40,328 nt of DNA from Candidatus Berkelbacteria bacterium (GTDB lineage: Bacteria > Patescibacteriota > UBA1384 > XYA2-FULL-43-10 > CAINNR01): the NCBI GenBank assembly GCA_026397205.1, contig JAPLVH010000017.1, positions 1 to 40,328 of the forward strand, in the 5' to 3' direction. Every line of letters begins with the position of its first letter. The stretch's first letter is position 1. The translations under genes and the position numbers were made by a program. The notes beneath the pieces are model-generated. The model made no database searches. It worked only from the letters and a program-made list of their open reading frames with translations, and had not been told where the DNA came from. Shown here in pieces: positions 1,553-36,342 of this stretch.

Positions 1553-1600
1553 CCGAAACATCTCCTTCTCCGCCCGGGTTTGGGCGCTGGGTTGCCTCGT

Positions 1601-1664
1601 GGGGTATATACTATATATGGGGTATATACTATATATATAGTATACAACATATATAGTATACAAC
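1601..1664. repeat. TA-alternating tandem/palindromic repeat in the pilin upstream region
   Basis: GGGGTATATACTATATAT x2, then ATATATAGTATACAAC x2; perfect 20 bp palindrome TATACTATATATATAGTATA at 1625-1644. Confidence 0.85.
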
Positions 1665-1692
1665 CGCCACTTGGTGGTTTGTTGTAAGTTCC

Positions 1693-1774
1693 GCCTGATC
1701 AAGCCGGTGATATCACCTTCTCAATCTAAGCCAAAGGGAATTTGAAATTATTCAACTTCCTGTTTGGACTAAAT
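1693..1774 (-). repeat. ~82 bp structured direct repeat, copy A
   Basis: GCCTGATCAAG...ATCTAAGCCAAAGGGAATTTGAAA...TTCAACTTCCTGTTTGGA is shared with 2518-2600. Confidence 0.9.
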
Positions 1775-2172
1775 CAAACAACTTTGTCTAAATACTTTTT
1801 AACTTCGGTCAAAAACATTTCAGTTTTTTCAATCGCATTTTCAACCATGTCGATTGTGGCTACAAACTTTGGACTGTAGTCGGCATCTTTCCGCAACATT
1901 TCCGCTTTTACCACGAAATTGTGAAATTTCTTATCAAACTTTCCTGTCTTGACGTAAAGCAAATAAAATTTGTCGATCATTCCCTTGTGAGTTTTGGCGT
2001 AAGTGTCTTCAAGTTCAAGAAGTCCGCGCAGAATATCAACGTTGGCATAATATGCTCTTGAAATTGAATCGCGGAAGTTTCCGAATTTTGCTAGCAGTTT
2101 TGCTGACCCAATTCTTTCGCTTGCACTCTCAACCATTTCTTCAATAATTTGTTTTTCTATCTTCTTGTTCAT
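1774..2172 (-). CDS. HEPN-domain protein (UPF0332-like), toxin partner of MNT
   Basis: SRAYYA ... THKG ... LRKDADY motifs; 132 aa; overlaps the MNT gene by 4 bp. Confidence 0.85.
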   Translation of the reverse strand: MNKKIEKQIIEEMVESASERIGSAKLLAKFGNFRDSISRAYYANVDILRGLLELEDTYAKTHKGMIDKFYLLYVKTGKFDKKFHNFVVKAEMLRKDADYSPKFVATIDMVENAIEKTEMFLTEVKKYLDKVV

Positions 2173-2495
2173 AATCTGACTCCTTTCGCGACCTCGCGAT
2201 AAAAGAGCCGTTCTTTATTTTTTTTGAATTCGCTAACTCCTTGGTTGAAAATTTGAACATCAAGGTTTTTTTCGAATTGATAATCGGTTTCCAAATCAAT
2301 AATCAGGTCATCATCTTTTCCAAAACTTTTGATTTTTCTTTTTGTTAGCAAAAACAAATCCATGTCAGAATCTTTTTTTGCTGTGCCTCGGGCGCGCGAG
2401 CCATATAAAATCACTGAGACAAGTTTATTGCCCAATTTCTTTTTTAACTCTTTCTTGATTTCTTTGGCAATTTGTAAATCTTTTTCGTTTGGCAT
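2169..2495 (-). CDS. Minimal nucleotidyltransferase (MNT) antitoxin
   Basis: ILYGSRARG ... DSDMDL Pol-beta-like motif; 108 aa; directly upstream of HEPN. Confidence 0.88.
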   Translation of the reverse strand: MPNEKDLQIAKEIKKELKKKLGNKLVSVILYGSRARGTAKKDSDMDLFLLTKRKIKSFGKDDDLIIDLETDYQFEKNLDVQIFNQGVSEFKKNKERLFYREVAKGVRL

Positions 2496-2517
2496 GATTT
2501 TATTTTAGCACGATTCT

Positions 2518-2600
2518 GCCTGATCAAGTGACGGTATCGCCTCCTCGATCTAAGCCAAAGGGAATTTGAAACCTTTTTCAACTTCCTGTTTGGATTAGAT
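2518..2600 (-). repeat. ~82 bp structured direct repeat, copy B
   Basis: Matches 1693-1774; most differences keep base pairing on the minus strand. Confidence 0.9.
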
Positions 2601-2690
2601 TCTATTTAGGGGACGGTTCTCTTTTGAATACGACTTTCGCACATCTGTCTTTCTTGGCTCAAGCTAACGTCATAATTATTTTACACTCCC

Positions 2691-2719
2691 AATATAGCAT
2701 ATTTTTCCCATTTTGTCAA
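2691..2719 (-). promoter_or_regulatory. sigma70 promoter reading into repeat copy B and MNT-HEPN
   Basis: Minus strand TTGACA-17 bp-TATATT with an extended -10 TG. Confidence 0.65.
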
Positions 2720-2810
2720 TGGGGAAATTCATAAACGTTTGTTTCATTATATAACTTTTGTCAATCAAAATGAAAAATTAAAAAAATCATTTACAGACAA
2801 TACAAAACAA

Positions 2811-2848
2811 TGGTGTGAAAATGGTGCTGGAGCACCATTTTCACACCA
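2811..2848. repeat. Palindrome family 1, copy a
   Basis: TGGTGTGAAAATGGTGCT-GG-AGCACCATTTTCACACCA; perfect 18 bp arms. Confidence 0.95.
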
Positions 2849-2892
2849 AAATGATAAAATAATTAGAGGATGAGAAATATAGGTGGTGAGAA

Positions 2893-3405
2893 ATGAAATA
2901 CAAAATTGTTTTACACAAAAGCAAATATTTTTCAGAATATCGTGAATTTTGCCAAAATTTGACAAAAATTCACAAAAAGAAACTCGATATTCATCATATT
3001 GGTAGTACGTCGGTGTCTGGTCTTGATGGAAAAGGGGTTATTGATGTTTTGATTGGGGTAAAAAATTGGCGAGAGTCGGAAGGCGTTATCAAATCGCTGA
3101 AAGGAATTGGGATAAAATACTGTTGGCCGAAAAATGGCGGGAGAATTTTTTTAAGCAACAGAAAAATAAATTCCCGCGAGGGTGATTTTCATATTCATCT
3201 TGTTCGCAGGGCGACAAAACAATACAAAAATTTCATCAGATTTAGAGATATTTTGCGCCAAGACGAATCAATTGCAAAAAAATACAAAAAAATCAAAGTT
3301 CGTGCGATAAAAACATCAGAGAATAGATTTTTCTACAAACATTTCAAAGGATTTTTTATTGAGTCAGTGCTTAAAAAAGAATTGTGTTTAAATTATTTGG
3401 TGTGA
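2893..3405 (+). CDS. GrpB/UPF0157 family nucleotidyltransferase-fold protein
   Basis: IHHIGSTSVSGLDGKGVIDVLIGV ... HIHLV ... FRDILR ... YKKIK motifs. Confidence 0.85.
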   Translation: MKYKIVLHKSKYFSEYREFCQNLTKIHKKKLDIHHIGSTSVSGLDGKGVIDVLIGVKNWRESEGVIKSLKGIGIKYCWPKNGGRIFLSNRKINSREGDFHIHLVRRATKQYKNFIRFRDILRQDESIAKKYKKIKVRAIKTSENRFFYKHFKGFFIESVLKKELCLNYLV

Positions 3406-3438
3406 AAATTATGCTCCAGCATAATTTTCACACCAAAT
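3395..3438. repeat. Palindrome family 1, copy b
   Basis: ATTTGGTGTGAAAATTATGCT-CC-AGCATAATTTTCACACCAAAT; perfect 21 bp arms; contains the GrpB stop codon. Confidence 0.95.
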
Positions 3439-3500
3439 TTCTCAGAAAACTATGGAATGTGATAAAATTAGAGTAGAATTTTTTGAAATACGAGACACCG

Positions 3501-4088
3501 ATGAAGAAATATCAAAAAGAAATTATCAAATTATCTGCCCGGGAACTGCTTTTGTCGTTTATTGATTTAGCATCACCGTTTTTCCAAGCTAGCCGAATTT
3601 ATCGCCAAGGCGCGAACAAATATATCAACGAGCGTCGAATTGAAAAAGCTGAGTTTTGGGACAAAATAAAATATCTCAAGCGCTCGGGTTACATCGAAAG
3701 ATTTCTTGACGGAAACGAGGAATATCACATGTTGACGCAGAAGGGCAGGGAAAAACTTGAGAAATTAAAATTTCAGGCAATAAAAATCAAGCGGCCGGAA
3801 AAATGGAACGGAAAATGGTGGCTGGTAATTTTTGATGTCCCGGACAAGAAAAAACAGGGGCGTGATTTGTTGCGAAAGAAATTGATATCGATTGATTTCG
3901 AAAAAATTCAGGAAAGTGTTTATGCCTATCCGTTCGAGTGTGCCGATGAAATTGATTTTATTGCTGGCAATTTGAATGTCGGCGAAAATGTTTTAATATT
4001 TATTGCTAATGCTATCAGGGGCGAAGAAGTGGTGATTGAAAAATTTCTCGACAAAAATATTTTGACTAAGAGAGATTTACAGAAATAA
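3501..4088 (+). CDS. wHTH + PaaX-central/Cas2-like domain protein (paralog 1)
   Basis: IKYLKRSGYIE..YHMLTQKG (winged helix) plus KWNGKWWLVIFDVP..RDLLRKKL..FEKIQESVY (Cas2-like ferredoxin fold). ATG 3501 aligns with the start of paralog 2. Confidence 0.85.
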   Translation: MKKYQKEIIKLSARELLLSFIDLASPFFQASRIYRQGANKYINERRIEKAEFWDKIKYLKRSGYIERFLDGNEEYHMLTQKGREKLEKLKFQAIKIKRPEKWNGKWWLVIFDVPDKKKQGRDLLRKKLISIDFEKIQESVYAYPFECADEIDFIAGNLNVGENVLIFIANAIRGEEVVIEKFLDKNILTKRDLQK

Positions 4089-4141
4089 AATTTAAGACAA
4101 GAAAAAAAGTTAAAAAAAGTAAATTCAGGGTTGGAAAAAGA

Positions 4142-4181
4142 AGTGTGTGAAAAGTTCGCTCCAGCGAACTTTTCACACACT
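4142..4181. repeat. Palindrome family 1, copy c
   Basis: AGTGTGTGAAAAGTTCGCT-CC-AGCGAACTTTTCACACACT; perfect 19 bp arms. Confidence 0.95.
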
Positions 4182-4263
4182 ATCATAATTAAAAAAGGCA
4201 ACCAGTGGTTGCCTTTGGATAAAACAGGACTTAAATTCGAGAAATAAACAATCAACTCTACTC

Positions 4264-20019: not shown

Positions 20020-21045
20020 ATGGTAAAAAACGAAGCAAAAAATATTGTCAACTCCGAAGTCGCTGAGGAGGATATCGAGCTTGATAATTCTTTGCGGCCG
20101 AAAAAACTTGGCGATTATGTCGGCCAAAAATCGATCAAGGAAAATTTGTCGGTTTTTATTGAAGCGGCGAAACGCCGTGGCGAGCCGATTGAGCATATAC
20201 TACTATATGGGCCGCCGGGGTTGGGGAAAACGACTCTGGCTCACATTATCGCCACCGAAATGGGTTCGCAAATTCGGGTAACTTCTGGCACGGCGATCGA
20301 ACGCGCCGGCGATTTGGCGTCAATTCTCACCGGTTTAAATGACGGTGATATTTTGTTCGTCGACGAAATTCACAGATTAAACCGCAACATCGAGGAGGTT
20401 TTGTATCCGGCAATGGAGGATTTTGCCATTGACATGGTCCTCGGCAAAGGTCCATCGGCGAAAACTTTGCGACTTGATGTGCCAAAATTTACTTTAATTG
20501 GCGCGACAACAAAAATCGGATCGCTTTCTTCGCCACTTCGCGATCGGTTTGGAAATGTTTTTCGCTTGGAATATTATGACGACGCTGAGCTTGAGAAAAT
20601 TATCACCCGCTCGGCAAAAATTCTCGGTGTCAAGCACCGTGGTGACGGACTAAAAGAGATTGCCAAACGAGCACGAAAAACGCCGCGGGTTGCCAACCGG
20701 ATTTTGAAACGGGTTAGGGACTTTGCCGAGGTTCGCCATCAGGGTGAAATCAGCAAAGAGATTGCTGAATTGGCACTTCTGATGCTGGAAATTGACAATC
20801 TAGGATTGGATAAAACTGACAGGATGATTTTGGAAACGATCATTGATAAATTTTCCGGCGGACCGGTTGGACTTGATGCCTTGGCGGCGGCATCAAGTGA
20901 AGACCGCGACACAATTGAAGATGTCATCGAGCCGTATTTTTTGCGGCTTGGTTTTATTGATCGGACGCCGCGCGGCCGACTGGCAACACCGGGAGCATAT
21001 GAGCATTTGGGGAGGACAAAAGGAAACCAGAAGAAGCTTTTGTAA
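20020..21045 (+). CDS. ruvB: Holliday junction helicase RuvB
   Basis: [43 protein letters not shown]. Confidence 0.98.
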
Positions 21046-22069: not shown

Positions 22070-23008
22070 ATGCCCCCAATCCCCGGAAAATTTTTCCCGA
22101 CTCAAATATCAGGTGAAAAAGTTTTTCTTTTAATCCGTCGCCACTGGATATATTTTGTTATTCTGGCATTGATTTTATCAATTTTGCTGGTCCCACTTGT
22201 CATCCTTTTGGTTTTTTGGCTTACAAATCCCTCGGAGTTTTCCGGTCCAATCGGTAATTTGTTGATTGTCTTTGCTGGTATATACGGTTTGACTTTGTGG
22301 GGCATGGGACTTTACGGTTTCGTCAACTACTATCTTGATGTTTACATTGTCACCAACGAGCGAATTGTTGATATTCGCCAAAACGGTTTTTTCAAGCGCG
22401 ATATCGCCGAACTTCACCTGCGCCAGGTTCAGGATGTTGATGCCAAAGTTGAGGGTATTCTACAAACCTTGCTCCATTTTGGAAATATTTATATCCAGAC
22501 TGCCGGAGAGCGCGAAAATTTCGTTTTTGAAGATGTCGCCAACCCCTACACTTTGGCGAAAAGAATCATCGAGCTAAACGAGGACCAAATTGAGGCCGGA
22601 AATCCCGGTGGTGACAATGATGATAATGGACCACAAACCAAGACGAATTTAGCAAATGTTGATGATTATCGGCCGGAGGATTACTATAAGGATTCGCCTA
22701 GTTTTGATGTTCGGCCAATACCGCGAAAATCAAAAAGTCAATTATCGGACCATCAAATCCCCAATACCGAGCCGGTTTCCGAGAAGGAGATTGAGGAACA
22801 TGATGGCGGAATAAAATATCTGGAAGAGAACTATTCGCCGAAAAATGAAGCCGATTTCGAGAGCCAGATTGGTGACAATCCGGCAGTAAATTCTGATGAT
22901 ACAATGTCATCGAATATACCATCGGTGGGAAATATCGCTCCAGAAAAGACAAATCCACAGGAATTTTCTGAGGGTGAGGAAGTAAAGCTTGATGATAAAA
23001 ATCAGTGA
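22070..23008 (+). CDS. Bacterial PH-domain (bPH_2-like) membrane protein with acidic disordered tail
   Basis: RRHW, two TMs, YIVTNERIVDI.Q.GFF, FGNIYIQTAGE. Confidence 0.8.
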   Translation: MPPIPGKFFPTQISGEKVFLLIRRHWIYFVILALILSILLVPLVILLVFWLTNPSEFSGPIGNLLIVFAGIYGLTLWGMGLYGFVNYYLDVYIVTNERIVDIRQNGFFKRDIAELHLRQVQDVDAKVEGILQTLLHFGNIYIQTAGERENFVFEDVANPYTLAKRIIELNEDQIEAGNPGGDNDDNGPQTKTNLANVDDYRPEDYYKDSPSFDVRPIPRKSKSQLSDHQIPNTEPVSEKEIEEHDGGIKYLEENYSPKNEADFESQIGDNPAVNSDDTMSSNIPSVGNIAPEKTNPQEFSEGEEVKLDDKNQ

Positions 23009-24167
23009 TTTTGACTATAATTTGCCAAAGGAACTGATTGCCCAAGTTCCGGTTAGTCCGCGAGACAACTCGCGGCTTTTGGTTTATGAAAGTTGTGATG
23101 ATGAAATTGCTGACGAGAAATTTTTCAATCTAGGAAATTTTTTACGTGCTGGTGATTTAGTCGTTGTCAATAATTCAAAAGTGATGTCGGCGAGGATATT
23201 TGGCGCCAAACTGTCGGGTGGAAAAATTGAAATTTTACTTTTGGAAAAAGTCGGCGATAATTGGTCAGCTTTGGTTGGTGGAAAAATTAATGTTGGCGAA
23301 AAAATTTTCCTTGAAGAAAATTTTTTCGCCAACATTAATTCAAAATCTGGCAAAGAAGCAGTCATCAAATTTAATCTATCCGGTGAGGATTTTTGGCAGA
23401 AAATAAATCAAATCGGAATTATGCCACTTCCACCCTACATAGAAAAAAAAATCAAAATTCAAAATTCAAAAATCATAATTAAGGAAGATTTTTTCCGAAA
23501 AGAATATCAAACAGTATATGCGAAAAATTTGGGCTCGGCGGCGGCTCCGACAGCCGGCTTGCATTTCACAGAAGAATTAATCAAAGAATTAGAATCCGCC
23601 GGCATTAATTTTGCCAGCGTTGACTTGCATGTCGGGCTTGGAACTTTTTTGCCGATCGATGAGGAAAATATTAAATCAAAAAAGCTTCATCGAGAAAATT
23701 TTTCGATTCCGGCAGAAACGATTGCCAAAATTATTGAAACCAAAAAATCCGGCGGTCGAATTATCGCCGTCGGCACGACAACCGTCCGGGCGCTGGAATC
23801 TTTTTGGAAAGATCAAAAATTAAAAATCAAAGATCAAAATGATAAATCAAAAATCAAAAAGGATTTTTCCGGGTCGACTGACATTTTTATCCATCCCGGA
23901 TTTGATTTCAAAATTGTCGACGGGCTTATCACCAATTTTCACTTGCCAAAGTCAAGCTTGATGATGCTGGTAGCGGCATTTATTCAATATAAAGTGCTTG
24001 GTCGCCATTTTGAGCGGGGAAAGCGAGTCGAAGAATCCTTAGAAATATCTCGCGAACAGATTATTGGCGCTAATTTTGGCCGGCAAAAACTCCTCGAACT
24101 CTATAATTTGGCCATCAAAAATCAATATCGTTTTTACTCCTTTGGCGACGCAATTCTGATAGTTTAA
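22992..24167 (+). CDS. queA: SAM:tRNA ribosyltransferase-isomerase QueA, with repeat-derived insertions
   Basis: DFDYNLPKELIAQ, MPLPPYI, YQTVYA, AAPTAGLHFT, LHVGLGTF, AVGTTTVRALE, TNFHLPKSSL, YRFYSFGDA. Confidence 0.96.
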   Translation: MIKISDFDYNLPKELIAQVPVSPRDNSRLLVYESCDDEIADEKFFNLGNFLRAGDLVVVNNSKVMSARIFGAKLSGGKIEILLLEKVGDNWSALVGGKINVGEKIFLEENFFANINSKSGKEAVIKFNLSGEDFWQKINQIGIMPLPPYIEKKIKIQNSKIIIKEDFFRKEYQTVYAKNLGSAAAPTAGLHFTEELIKELESAGINFASVDLHVGLGTFLPIDEENIKSKKLHRENFSIPAETIAKIIETKKSGGRIIAVGTTTVRALESFWKDQKLKIKDQNDKSKIKKDFSGSTDIFIHPGFDFKIVDGLITNFHLPKSSLMMLVAAFIQYKVLGRHFERGKRVEESLEISREQIIGANFGRQKLLELYNLAIKNQYRFYSFGDAILIV

Positions 24168-24203: not shown

Positions 24204-24243
24204 TTTGTGTAATATACTTCCGATCGGAAGTATATTACACAAA
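24204..24243. repeat. Palindrome family 2, downstream copy
   Basis: TTTGTGTAATATACTTCCGA|TCGGAAGTATATTACACAAA; perfect 40 bp, no spacer. Confidence 0.96.
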
Positions 24244-24261: not shown

Positions 24262-24852
24262 CTAAAGATCTTTTTTGTTCAGGGTTCTATTTTTCATAAA
24301 TTTGTAAATAATTTCTTTTTCGCCTTGGATAATTTCAGCAATAAAAATTGTCACAGATTTCTCAACACCAAGCGATTTCGATAGCGTAGATATTTCTTCT
24401 GTGCAGGGAAAAGGAAAAATGTAAACACTTTTTTGTATTTTTATAAATCCCAGATTTTTCAGTTTTAGCCGCAAACTATCTCTCGAACTACGAAGTTTTT
24501 CTTTAATGTCAAATATTACAATTCTCCACATTTTATCCCACTTTTCAGGCCGTGGAATTTCTATTTTTGACGAAAATTCTTTCAATTTTTTAAATCCTAT
24601 TGGAGAAATCTCAACAAACTTTTCCTTGTTTTCTATGACGATTTTAATTGCTCCGATTTTTTTTAAATATTGTATCCGGTCGTTGATTTTTGTTTTGTCG
24701 TATCGATCATCTGCAAGATATTTTCGAATCGGTTGGCGATAAATTCGGCTTGATTCAAAGAATGGCCTAGCTGTTTTTTCTGCCGCTTCTACCAGAGTCA
24801 TCAACAGTTTAATTGATGTCAATTTGATTATTTCTTTCTTTTCTTCTCTCAT
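24262..24852 (-). CDS. wHTH + PaaX-central/Cas2-like domain protein (paralog 2)
   Basis: PFFESSRIYRQ (cf. PFFQASRIYRQ in paralog 1), IQYLKKIGAI, RPEKWDKMWRIVIFDI, LKNLGFIKIQKSVYIFP. Confidence 0.85.
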   Translation of the reverse strand: MREEKKEIIKLTSIKLLMTLVEAAEKTARPFFESSRIYRQPIRKYLADDRYDKTKINDRIQYLKKIGAIKIVIENKEKFVEISPIGFKKLKEFSSKIEIPRPEKWDKMWRIVIFDIKEKLRSSRDSLRLKLKNLGFIKIQKSVYIFPFPCTEEISTLSKSLGVEKSVTIFIAEIIQGEKEIIYKFMKNRTLNKKDL

Positions 24853-24872
24853 TTTTAATCCTTTATTTAAAT

Positions 24873-24914
24873 ATTTATGTAATACACTTCCGATCGGAAG
24901 TGTATTACATAAAT
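24873..24914. repeat. Palindrome family 2, upstream copy
   Basis: ATTTATGTAATACACTTCCGA|TCGGAAGTGTATTACATAAAT; perfect 42 bp. Confidence 0.96.
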
Positions 24915-25051
24915 TATATCATAAACATATTTTGGCGAAGGATAAAACTATGAGCAAGCGCAAGAAATAAATCTACAGAAAATGTTTTAAAAATGATTTG
25001 TGGGAATGGATAATTTAATTGTTGGTTAAAAATTTTCCCTGAAAAGAATTG

Positions 25052-35607: not shown

Positions 35608-35652
35608 TTTTTCGGATGTATTTCCCTCATTTTTGCATTAAAGTGTAACACC

Positions 35653-35690
35653 TAATTCAGATATTGACCGATCGGTCAATATCTGAATTA
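35653..35690. repeat. Palindrome family 3, downstream copy
   Basis: TAATTCAGATATTGACCGA|TCGGTCAATATCTGAATTA; perfect 38 bp; includes the gene's TAA stop. Confidence 0.96.
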
Positions 35691-36230
35691 TTTATGTCGT
35701 TTTCTGAATAGATTATCTAAGTGTTCTTCAATATTACTCTTTGCAATGATGAAATATGCGACGTATTCTCTAATCTCCAATTCATCGATAATCAGATCGA
35801 TTTCATCTGCCTTTATGTATTGACAAACCCACAAACTTTTTTGCAATTGTTTGAATCCAATTCTTTTTAGCGATCGGCAAAATTGCCTGCGTTTTATATT
35901 GTAATTTTCCGGAATGTCGTAAGAGATTATCCTAAGTCGTCCATCAACCTCGAGATTTTTTGGGCTCTCAAGATTTTTAATCTTACCTTTCACAGTTAAT
36001 CGTACGCTTAAGTTGCAGTTTTGTTCTTTGATTTCGATATATCCTGTACGTTTTAAATTTCGCAAGTATTGAATAAATTTATCACCGAGAAAATCTTCGC
36101 CAGATTCCATTTGTCTTTTCAGACCTTCTTGGTCTAGAAATCCACCGATTATTGCTTCAGGTGTCCGGGCGATTGCCGCCAAAATTGTCCAAGTTATTTC
36201 ACCAAATGCTTGTTTTGTTTCTTTTTTCAT
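35688..36230 (-). CDS. wHTH + PaaX-central/Cas2-like domain protein (paralog 3)
   Basis: LRNLKRTGYIE..VRLTVKGK, DGRLRIISYDIPE..RRQFCRSLKRIGFKQLQKSLWV. Confidence 0.85.
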   Translation of the reverse strand: MKKETKQAFGEITWTILAAIARTPEAIIGGFLDQEGLKRQMESGEDFLGDKFIQYLRNLKRTGYIEIKEQNCNLSVRLTVKGKIKNLESPKNLEVDGRLRIISYDIPENYNIKRRQFCRSLKRIGFKQLQKSLWVCQYIKADEIDLIIDELEIREYVAYFIIAKSNIEEHLDNLFRKRHK

Positions 36231-36236
36231 ATTTCA

Positions 36237-36265
36237 AGTATATAATTTTTGGAAATATTTTTCAA
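36237..36265 (-). promoter_or_regulatory. Leaderless sigma70 promoter of paralog 3; -35 overlaps the palindrome end
   Basis: Minus strand TTGAAA-17 bp-TATACT-6 nt-ATG. Confidence 0.6.
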
Positions 36266-36300
36266 TTCAGATATTGACCGATCGGTCAATATCTGAATTG
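36263..36300. repeat. Palindrome family 3, upstream copy
   Basis: CAATTCAGATATTGACCGA|TCGGTCAATATCTGAATTG; perfect 38 bp. Confidence 0.96.
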
Positions 36301-36342
36301 GGAGTAATTGAGACGAGAAAAATATAAAAATTAGAAAAAAGC

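Follow-up and report, generated by a model that had tools for sequence, protein, structure and literature searches.

Why does a genome of Candidatus Berkelbacteria interleave three perfect palindromes with two genes, and what keeps the arms of these palindromes identical while part of their sequence is free to vary? The locus in question lies in a 40,328-nt stretch (hereinafter the window, meaning the whole stretch that was analysed), which is C8:1-40328, i.e., contig JAPLVH010000017.1, of the assembly GCA_026397205.1 (821,591 bp in 29 contigs, 95% complete, 42% G+C). Here, the palindromes alternate with a gene of the GrpB family and a gene for a small protein with a Cas2-like fold, which we term mini-PaaX. 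The first-pass annotation of the window had seen in this layout a cassette able to capture GrpB as a passenger. We posit instead, with a confidence only somewhat better than even, that the palindromes are duplex binding sites of a mini-PaaX dimer, that the symmetry of their variable 4-nt block (N4) arises by templating of one arm from the other, and that GrpB is not cargo. The features of the locus are:

2811 to 2848, no strand: palindrome a, TGGTGTGAAAA-TGGT-GCT-GG-AGC-ACCA-TTTTCACACCA, overlapping the -35/spacer region of the GrpB promoter-like site.
2852 to 2860, plus strand: extended -10-like element TGATAAAAT (TG at 2852-2853, TAAAAT at 2855-2860), with the ATG of GrpB 33 nt downstream.
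2893 to 3405, plus strand: GrpB-family gene of 170 aa (PF04229, E 3e-29, profile positions 3-159 of 159).
3395 to 3438, no strand: palindrome b, with N4 TTAT, centre CC and a symmetric extension to ATTTGG...CCAAAT.
3439 to 3468, plus strand: promoter-like site of the mini-PaaX gene, with TGATAAAAT at 3460-3468 within it.
3501 to 4088, plus strand: mini-PaaX gene of 195 aa from the ATG at 3501 (PaaX_M, PF20803, E 2.5e-18).
4142 to 4181, no strand: palindrome c, with N4 GTTC and centre CC, 54 nt past the mini-PaaX stop and with convergent genes on either side.

The three palindromes share the pattern GTGTGAAAA-N4-GCT-NN-AGC-N4'-TTTTCACAC (hereinafter family B), with exact matches (GTGTGAAAANNNNGCTNNAGCNNNNTTTTCACAC) at 2813-2846, 3400-3433 and 4145-4178. 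These 3 matches, all with 0 mismatches, are those found in the window, where 100 shuffles give an expectation of 0.00. The full palindromes a, b and c have arms of 18, 21 and 19 nt, respectively, which are 100% complementary and separated by 2 nt, and they lie 553 bp (a-b) and 711 bp (b-c) apart, thereby enclosing the two genes. N4 reads TGGT in a, TTAT in b and GTTC in c, each time with its exact complement in the opposite arm, and the central dinucleotide is GG in a and CC in b and c. The TGA stop of GrpB (3403-3405) lies inside the GTGTGA of copy b, which also includes the last three codons of the gene, and palindrome b ends one base before the -35-like hexamer of the mini-PaaX promoter-like site. 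Every sequence statement of the first-pass annotation on the palindromes, their N4 values and centres, the GrpB stop and the positions of TGATAAAAT is correct. The strain recurs in public runs: two studies have DNA contigs identical to 2766-4174 or 2837-4174, with breaks at palindromes a and c. These contigs show no polymorphism of N4 or of CC/GG at the locus, although contigs drop rare variants.

To place these sites in the context of the genome, the family-B pattern was searched with up to 3 mismatches and N4 left free, using the reversed pattern as a control. There are 8 copies, all with 0 mismatches, as compared to 0 for the control, and N4 is complemented in 8/8 (TGGT, TTAT, GTTC three times, TTGC, AGTT and AGTA). 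In the alignment of the 8 sequences, the N4 columns show 15 cells changed on both sides, with none one-sided or unpaired, and this covariation score is reached by 0/500 shuffles. One-sided changes of the G-U type number 0 in the 144 pair cells of the alignment, and the recognition blocks show 0 changes at 24 positions across the 8 copies. With a profile, the copies score 37-44 bits and the next best place in the genome 12 bits. Thus, family B has no decayed copies and is all-or-none. The exact pattern has 0 matches in 60 relatives, 0 in genome_contigs (one genome per species) and 0 in viral_contigs. A looser pattern, GTGTSAAAA-N4-GC-N4-GC-N4-TTTTSACAC, occurs at 9 places in three other genomes, with N4 complemented in 9/9; 6 of these sister-motif copies, sharing a single N4, come from one Nealsonbacteria metagenome-assembled genome (MAG).

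Uncompensated mismatches in N4, which the first-pass annotation had named as the observation that would speak against its reading of paired arms, are found in 0 of 17 copies (the 8 of this genome and the 9 of the sister motif). Its deduction that bases free to vary yet always complementary mean more than simple duplex readout holds equally well, at 8/8 copies here and 9/9 of the sister motif. As N4 varies freely and yet is always complementary, some arm-to-arm process has to act, either a requirement for a hairpin or the templating of one arm from the other. The polarity that had been ascribed to the CC/GG centre fares less well: the dinucleotides are as described, but they amount to just 2 nt, one genomic copy has the symmetric centre CG, and the polarity is probably not functional.

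What protein, then, might use these sites? The product of the adjoining gene had been called Cas2-like, which is correct for one domain with the Cas2 fold but misses the identity of the protein, which combines a predicted winged helix-turn-helix (wHTH) with PaaX_M (PF20803) and has PaaX as its fold match. The PF20803 match reaches 66.4 bits against a cut-off of 24, whereas Cas2 models are matched weakly (E 4e-5 to 6e-5, at the cut-offs or slightly below them). The start at the ATG at 3501 was chosen from 26 aligned homologues beginning MKK..; an alternative upstream TTG start at 3483 would yield 201 aa (ORF, i.e., open reading frame, 3483-4088). The N-terminal domain has no Pfam match at E <= 0.01 and weak matches to wHTH domains of the MarR/AspA type (E 0.012-0.016). 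An AlphaFold model built on the homologue alignment (predicted local distance difference test, pLDDT, 87.1) shows helices followed by a β-hairpin at 65-78 in this region. The top Foldseek match of the model is the E. coli PaaX (8A39; E 3.7e-5, probability 1.00, 131 aligned columns), followed by Rv0674 (3kfw) and many Cas2 chains. Taken together, the profile matches and the model suggest that the protein is a winged helix joined to the Cas2-fold middle domain of PaaX. Pfam gives no match for the PaaX_C ligand domain, the protein ends about 20 residues past PaaX_M, and its score with the PaaX equivalog TIGR02277 is 35.6 bits where the cut-off is 264.55. Hence, it is a mini-PaaX rather than PaaX itself.

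As a two-copy model, the protein scores 0.52, whereas none of 3 controls rises above 0.00. Of the proteins used for calibration, 20/30 solved as one-chain pairs attained this mark, as did 1/23 solved as single chains. The two-copy runs have a contact agreement of at least 97% and a partner pLDDT of at least 72, and the predicted interface is symmetric, involving residues 106-112, 136-140 and 164-175 of the Cas2-fold domain. This result may reflect the likeness to solved dimers of Cas2 and PaaX (i.e., model memory) and need not be independent evidence. The residue D112 at the end of β-1 is invariant in 27/27 sequences and presumably corresponds to the position of the metal-binding aspartate of Cas2. 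With Cas2, mini-PaaX shares the fold, a predicted dimer through the edge of the β-sheet and motifs which we take to be comparable to the YDI and QxSVF motifs of that family; it differs in its fusion to a predicted winged helix and in its weak sequence matches to Cas2 models.

The closest functional precedent is PaaX, the phenylacetyl-CoA-responsive repressor of the paa operon of E. coli and Pseudomonas (8A39, 3L09), a dimer with the same Cas2-like dimerisation domain and with a winged helix to which the one predicted here probably corresponds. According to PMC9493321, PaaX recognizes a long operator with widely spaced inverted half-sites, TGATTC(N27)GAATCA in E. coli, and represses its own promoter by steric hindrance. 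The geometry predicted here is similar, with 9-mers 16 bp apart as compared to hexamers 27 bp apart in that site (PMC9493321). Unlike PaaX, mini-PaaX lacks PaaX_C and has 195 aa as against 316 aa (8A39 chain), there are no paa genes nearby, the genome holds 9 paralogs, and the sites are perfect 34-44-bp palindromes which stand at both gene ends and also alone at the ends of genes.

It is these paralogs that tie the protein family to palindromes. The genome codes for 9 PaaX_M genes, all above the Pfam cut-off, and a profile from the homologue alignment recovers the same 9 among 945 ORFs, i.e., mini-PaaX genes constitute about 1% of ORFs (9/945). A strict palindrome lies within 60 bp of a gene end in 8/9 mini-PaaX genes as compared to 66/945 ORFs (binomial P 4.8e-9); for strict palindromes within 60 bp of both ends, the figures are 5/9 and 7/945 (binomial P 2.7e-9). 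The seven ORFs bracketed in this manner are five mini-PaaX genes, the GrpB gene and one ORF between two unrelated palindromes. The ninth paralog, on contig C16, has an open reading frame and quasi-palindromes on either side, whose inner 6-nt block is non-complementary. With all 9 paralogs beside palindromes, mini-PaaX is likely a reader of palindromes and not their cargo.

The palindromes adjoining the paralogs belong to four sequence clusters, and several differ also within a cluster. The window itself contains two further paralogs. One (24262-24852, minus strand; 42% identical to the mini-PaaX of the locus) stands between CGATCG-centred palindromes at 24204-24243 and 24870-24917, which have two arm differences, both symmetric. 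The other (35688-36230, minus strand) stands between identical AATTCAGATATTGACCGATCGGTCAATATCTGAATT palindromes at 35648-35695 and 36260-36303, a lone third copy of which is found at C14:6983-7028. That two sites within one module differ by symmetric changes alone is seen twice (C8:24204 vs 24870; C21:11727 vs 12375). More generally, the genome has many families of perfect 32-56-bp palindromes, most of them symmetric through the centre (CGATCG, GCTAGC, ACGT, GGCC). Elsewhere in the window, a 56-bp near-perfect palindrome at 23285-23340 (28-nt half with 2 central mismatches; 25-nt perfect arms) lies within a 392-aa ORF (22989-24167, plus strand) and may be an in-frame repeat insertion.

Beyond this genome, homologues of mini-PaaX are found in 74/162 genomes of the class (E <= 1e-10), with a best identity of 56%. 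In 29 related loci that were fetched, a palindrome by the strict criterion lies beside the gene in 10 and on both sides of it in 4; none of the 29 has a family-B-like palindrome beside the mini-PaaX gene.

We propose that a mini-PaaX homodimer would recognize the duplex by its outer blocks (GTGTGAAAA / TTTTCACAC) and its GCT..AGC centre, all of them invariant. Symmetry through the centre would be a requirement for a two-fold dimer on duplex DNA but not for a hairpin loop. Site a covers the -35/spacer region of the GrpB promoter-like site, so that GrpB is probably repressed by mini-PaaX. The -10-like element of that site is absent from the consensus promoter scan, having no -35 match, and its function is putative. 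Site b abuts the -35 of the mini-PaaX promoter-like site, which has the form TTCTCA-18 nt-TAAAAT (9/12 consensus matches, with a TG preceding the -10), an arrangement that suggests autoregulation. Site c would form a 3' boundary and may be a roadblock or terminator; Rho_RNA_bind (PF07497) has no match in the 95%-complete assembly, making such a boundary or roadblock role of bound palindromes possible. There is a weak hint that mini-PaaX is transcribed: contigs from one RNA-library run, in which carry-over of DNA is possible, are identical to 3817-3967 and 3981-4130 and end 12 nt short of copy c, with small pieces elsewhere.

In this proposal N4 would go unread, and its symmetry would be kept by template switching of the quasi-palindrome type, which passes through a short-lived DNA hairpin as the DNA is replicated. 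The hairpin would then be an intermediate in mutation and need not be the form in which the site works. There is reported precedent (PMC13100816, PMC7202029) for template switching between the arms of inverted repeats that homogenises and extends them, transcription-factor sites included. The data accommodate both selection for hairpins or cruciforms and homogenisation by template switching; we lean to the latter, acting on a duplex-binding site, because of the symmetry through the centre, the non-complementary inner blocks of the C16 paralog, which are a counter-example to a strict need for a hairpin, and the lack of one-sided changes of the wobble type.

Several observations weigh against this proposal. 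Isolated palindromes of the five main clusters (n=35) comprise 17 between convergent, 13 between co-directional and 5 between divergent genes, while the corresponding shares of intergenic bases are 18%/60%/21% (convergent enrichment P 4.5e-5), and convergent gene ends are not the usual places of operators. In family B, 5/8 copies are isolated and 4/8 lie at convergent gene ends, and the five isolated copies adjoin housekeeping genes that are unrelated to one another, namely those for an OmpR-type regulator, an ABC transporter, a GT4 glycosyltransferase, Obg and a PRC-barrel protein. The drop from 37 to 12 bits does not resemble a regulon in drift, and sites a and b are differently placed relative to their promoters, with estimated centres at about -37 and -58. 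Template switching has to be assumed in addition, and the pattern it predicts is also that of hairpin selection. The shared N4 of the 6 sister-motif copies in the Nealsonbacteria MAG suggests that N4 may be constrained there. The joint evolution of the arms in all families, seen as 184 symmetric, 46 one-sided and 12 doubly different changes relative to the cluster consensus (60 palindromes in six clusters), speaks for the proposal, but the count is biased, as the palindromes were detected with at most 3 mismatches and the tested positions were left free only in the N4 tests. The gene calls are naive ORF calls, and the functions we ascribe to mini-PaaX and the palindromes are deduced from sequence and models.

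A plain regulon also has to contend with the most abundant palindrome family of the genome, TCCCTCACTTTGATACGCTAGCGTATCAAAGTGAGGGA (TCCCTCAC...), with 13 mostly perfect copies and no mini-PaaX at any of them. No partner gene emerged for it in the genome, there being no recurring neighbour, no adjoining mini-PaaX and no further mini-PaaX at E <= 10. Examples of its copies are:

C8:44624-44671, no strand: orphan-family palindrome, outside the window.
C6:22306, no strand: orphan-family palindrome.
C13:10204, no strand: orphan-family palindrome.
C22:42098, no strand: orphan-family palindrome.

A further copy, with 37-bp arms, is found right at the beginning of contig C15, where it could be a fold-back of the assembly.

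Could the palindromes instead be mobile repeats in the manner of the repetitive extragenic palindromic (REP) sequences and their REP-associated tyrosine transposases (RAYTs)? Under this alternative, which we hold to be unlikely, the Cas2-fold mini-PaaX would replace the HUH transposase, recognizing extruded hairpins or cruciforms and cutting, copying or maintaining them. Its second component, that a bracketed gene is an autonomous unit and the isolated palindromes its non-autonomous offspring, with N4 complementary because only intact hairpins are substrates, appears to us equally doubtful. Much of the distribution fits: a gene is bracketed by a pair of its own repeats, further copies of which stand alone elsewhere, and the latter are enriched at convergent gene ends, as has been described for REPs. 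The 34-bp family-B unit occurs at 8 unrelated loci without conserved flanks and must therefore have been copied. The N4 changes are all double and compensated, family B is all-or-none, D112 is invariant, and the palindromes form stable hairpins as single-stranded DNA, palindrome a with 17 bp at -20 kcal/mol (z -8.75), b at -20.3 kcal/mol (z -11.66) and c at -20.9 kcal/mol (z -10.30).

On the other side of the ledger, we know of no nuclease or transposase activity of PaaX_M domains. No target-site duplications or conserved flanks are seen around the 8 family-B copies, which are few in number, and N4 differs in 6/8 of them, a poor fit to recent copying from one master. The symmetry through the centre that most palindrome families show is not necessary for a hairpin loop, and the C16 module retains its non-complementary inner blocks. 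Moreover, the genome has a separate Y1 transposase with a different repeat of its own. The sole Y1_Tnp match, at C21:24296-24628 in an IS200/RAYT-like gene (C21:24263-24916), is associated with a terminal inverted repeat (GGGGACGGTTCTCTTTTGA...) unlike family B, of which the genome has 6 copies, 2 flanking the Y1_Tnp gene and 4 isolated. One of the 6 lies at 2609-2642, where contigs assembled from public runs break and the depth rises.

The likeness to REP/RAYT systems, including REPINs, can be made more precise (PMC3116915, PMC3337134, PMC3733652). There, too, palindromic repeats surround the single-copy gene to which they belong and also occur as isolated extragenic copies, with a preference for the 3' ends of genes, and changes in the stems are compensated. 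They differ in that the flanked protein there is an HUH Y1 transposase, whereas here it is a predicted wHTH with a Cas2 fold, and in that the repeats here are perfect, end in (T)GGTGTG without the GTAG/CGTC tag by which REPs are defined (PMC3733652), and number 8 copies as compared to hundreds. PMC3733652 gives termination and stabilisation of mRNA as proposed roles of REPs. One might picture mini-PaaX as a non-HUH counterpart of RAYT, which recognizes its own palindrome as a hairpin or cruciform, keeps the arms identical, and spreads or maintains copies across genomes of the candidate phyla radiation (CPR); we regard this as rather unlikely. If it were so, the bound palindromes may be protein-dependent transcription boundaries. 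It is likewise a long way from probable that the family-B copies are the working set of such a system, with frozen recognition blocks and an N4 that turns over rapidly in symmetric steps.

It is quite improbable, in our assessment, that the palindromes are mainly RNA hairpins, acting as bidirectional terminators or stabilisers of mRNA ends, with stems under selection for RNA folding and mini-PaaX either incidental or RNA-binding. The inner part, AAAA-stem-loop-stem-TTTT, does resemble a bidirectional terminator, and the internal AAAA...TTTT tracts of family B could act as a terminator T tract. Terminator-like calls are obtained for copies a and c (minus strand only), isolated copies are enriched between convergent genes, the genome lacks a Rho_RNA_bind match, and the RNA-library contigs, with the limits given above, stop just before copy c. 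However, RNA stems usually tolerate one-sided changes of the G-U type, and none is seen in the 144 pair cells. Copy b is called a terminator on neither strand, copy a belongs to a divergent promoter region, A/T tracts are lacking in the other palindrome families, and ordinary terminators also occur in the genome (e.g., at 4194-4216). This explanation leaves the presence of palindromes, often differing in sequence, beside 9/9 mini-PaaX genes unaccounted for.

The cassette that the first-pass annotation had envisaged, with the palindromes as recombination sites of an integron-like or other recombinase-driven array and GrpB as its passenger, can be set aside as very improbable: GrpB does lie between two palindromes of one family, as few ORFs do, is patchy in the class (21/162 genomes, this one included) and falls in a block of low G+C (about 1600-4200, 30-39% as compared to 42% for the genome), but contig C8 has no tyrosine recombinase (the four PF00589 matches are all on C17 and C2), both genes have promoter-like sites of their own, GrpB is found within 1.5 kb of 0/29 related mini-PaaX genes and mini-PaaX within 1.5 kb of 0/19 related GrpB genes, and the sites are unlike attC. 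Integron attC sites are imperfect and bulged, with a GTTRRRY core, and integron cassettes are promoterless. The resemblance is limited to structured inverted repeats of variable sequence between genes; here no integrase is nearby, and the palindromes are perfect, without bulges or such a core. A search of the genome with the family-B pattern for enclosed genes, as the first-pass annotation had advised, did retrieve the 8 copies but no second family-B-bracketed passenger. We take GrpB to be an ordinary gene that fell under a third copy of the operator-like site. A possible link between the two genes in the genome with the best homologues (68% identity for GrpB and 56% for mini-PaaX, each at a contig end) found no support: the contig ends do not overlap, the GrpB copy there is missing 57 residues at its N-terminus, and GrpB is not continued at the beginning of the other contig.

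Returning to mini-PaaX as a reader of duplex sites, the layout of gene plus palindromes recurs nine times in the genome and seems to be undescribed in print: full-text literature, about 1.7 million PubMed Central (PMC) articles and subscription-only papers aside, yielded nothing on PaaX-like proteins flanked by palindromes in CPR bacteria. The feature joins a predicted DNA-binding protein of the PaaX type to sites that behave like REPs. If the conservative interpretation as repressor and operators is true, CPR bacteria, which are thought to be poor in regulators, would have a large and fast-diversifying set of repressor-operator pairs with readable specificity. If the bolder one is true, mini-PaaX would represent a new family of proteins that maintain palindromic repeats. 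In either case, the locus offers one protein and eight sites with identical recognition blocks, differing solely in a symmetric 4-nt spacer, and is thus a ready-made test of duplex versus hairpin recognition and of the homogenisation of arms by template switching.

Other roles were considered and rejected. A role in CRISPR adaptation found no Cas1 (PF01867) match in the 95%-complete genome and no CRISPR array at the locus. As for defence, PADLOC gives weak Cas2 matches for mini-PaaX and none for GrpB. The half-site GTGTGAAAA has 25 occurrences on both strands, 16 of them in the 8 palindromes, and is not over-represented alone, which speaks against a DNA-uptake sequence. A relaxed metagenome scan with GTGTGAAAA-N16-TTTTCACAC returned at least 119 loci, many from gut assemblies; among the matches listed, none has the GCT..AGC centre, and they are unrelated hairpins.

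Two palindromes on another contig (C7:20466-20499 and 20536-20573), which have no adjoining mini-PaaX, share the GCTCCAGC centre of family B with different outer blocks (GGGGAATTTTTAA...). The low-G+C block at about 1600-4200 spans, besides GrpB and mini-PaaX, the Y1 repeat and a HEPN-MNT pair directly to the left of the locus. The latter consists of a HEPN gene (1774-2172) and an MNT-type nucleotidyltransferase gene (2169-2495), both on the minus strand and with overlapping ends, and the MNT gene matches the PADLOC candidate PDC-S09 (E 1.4e-17).

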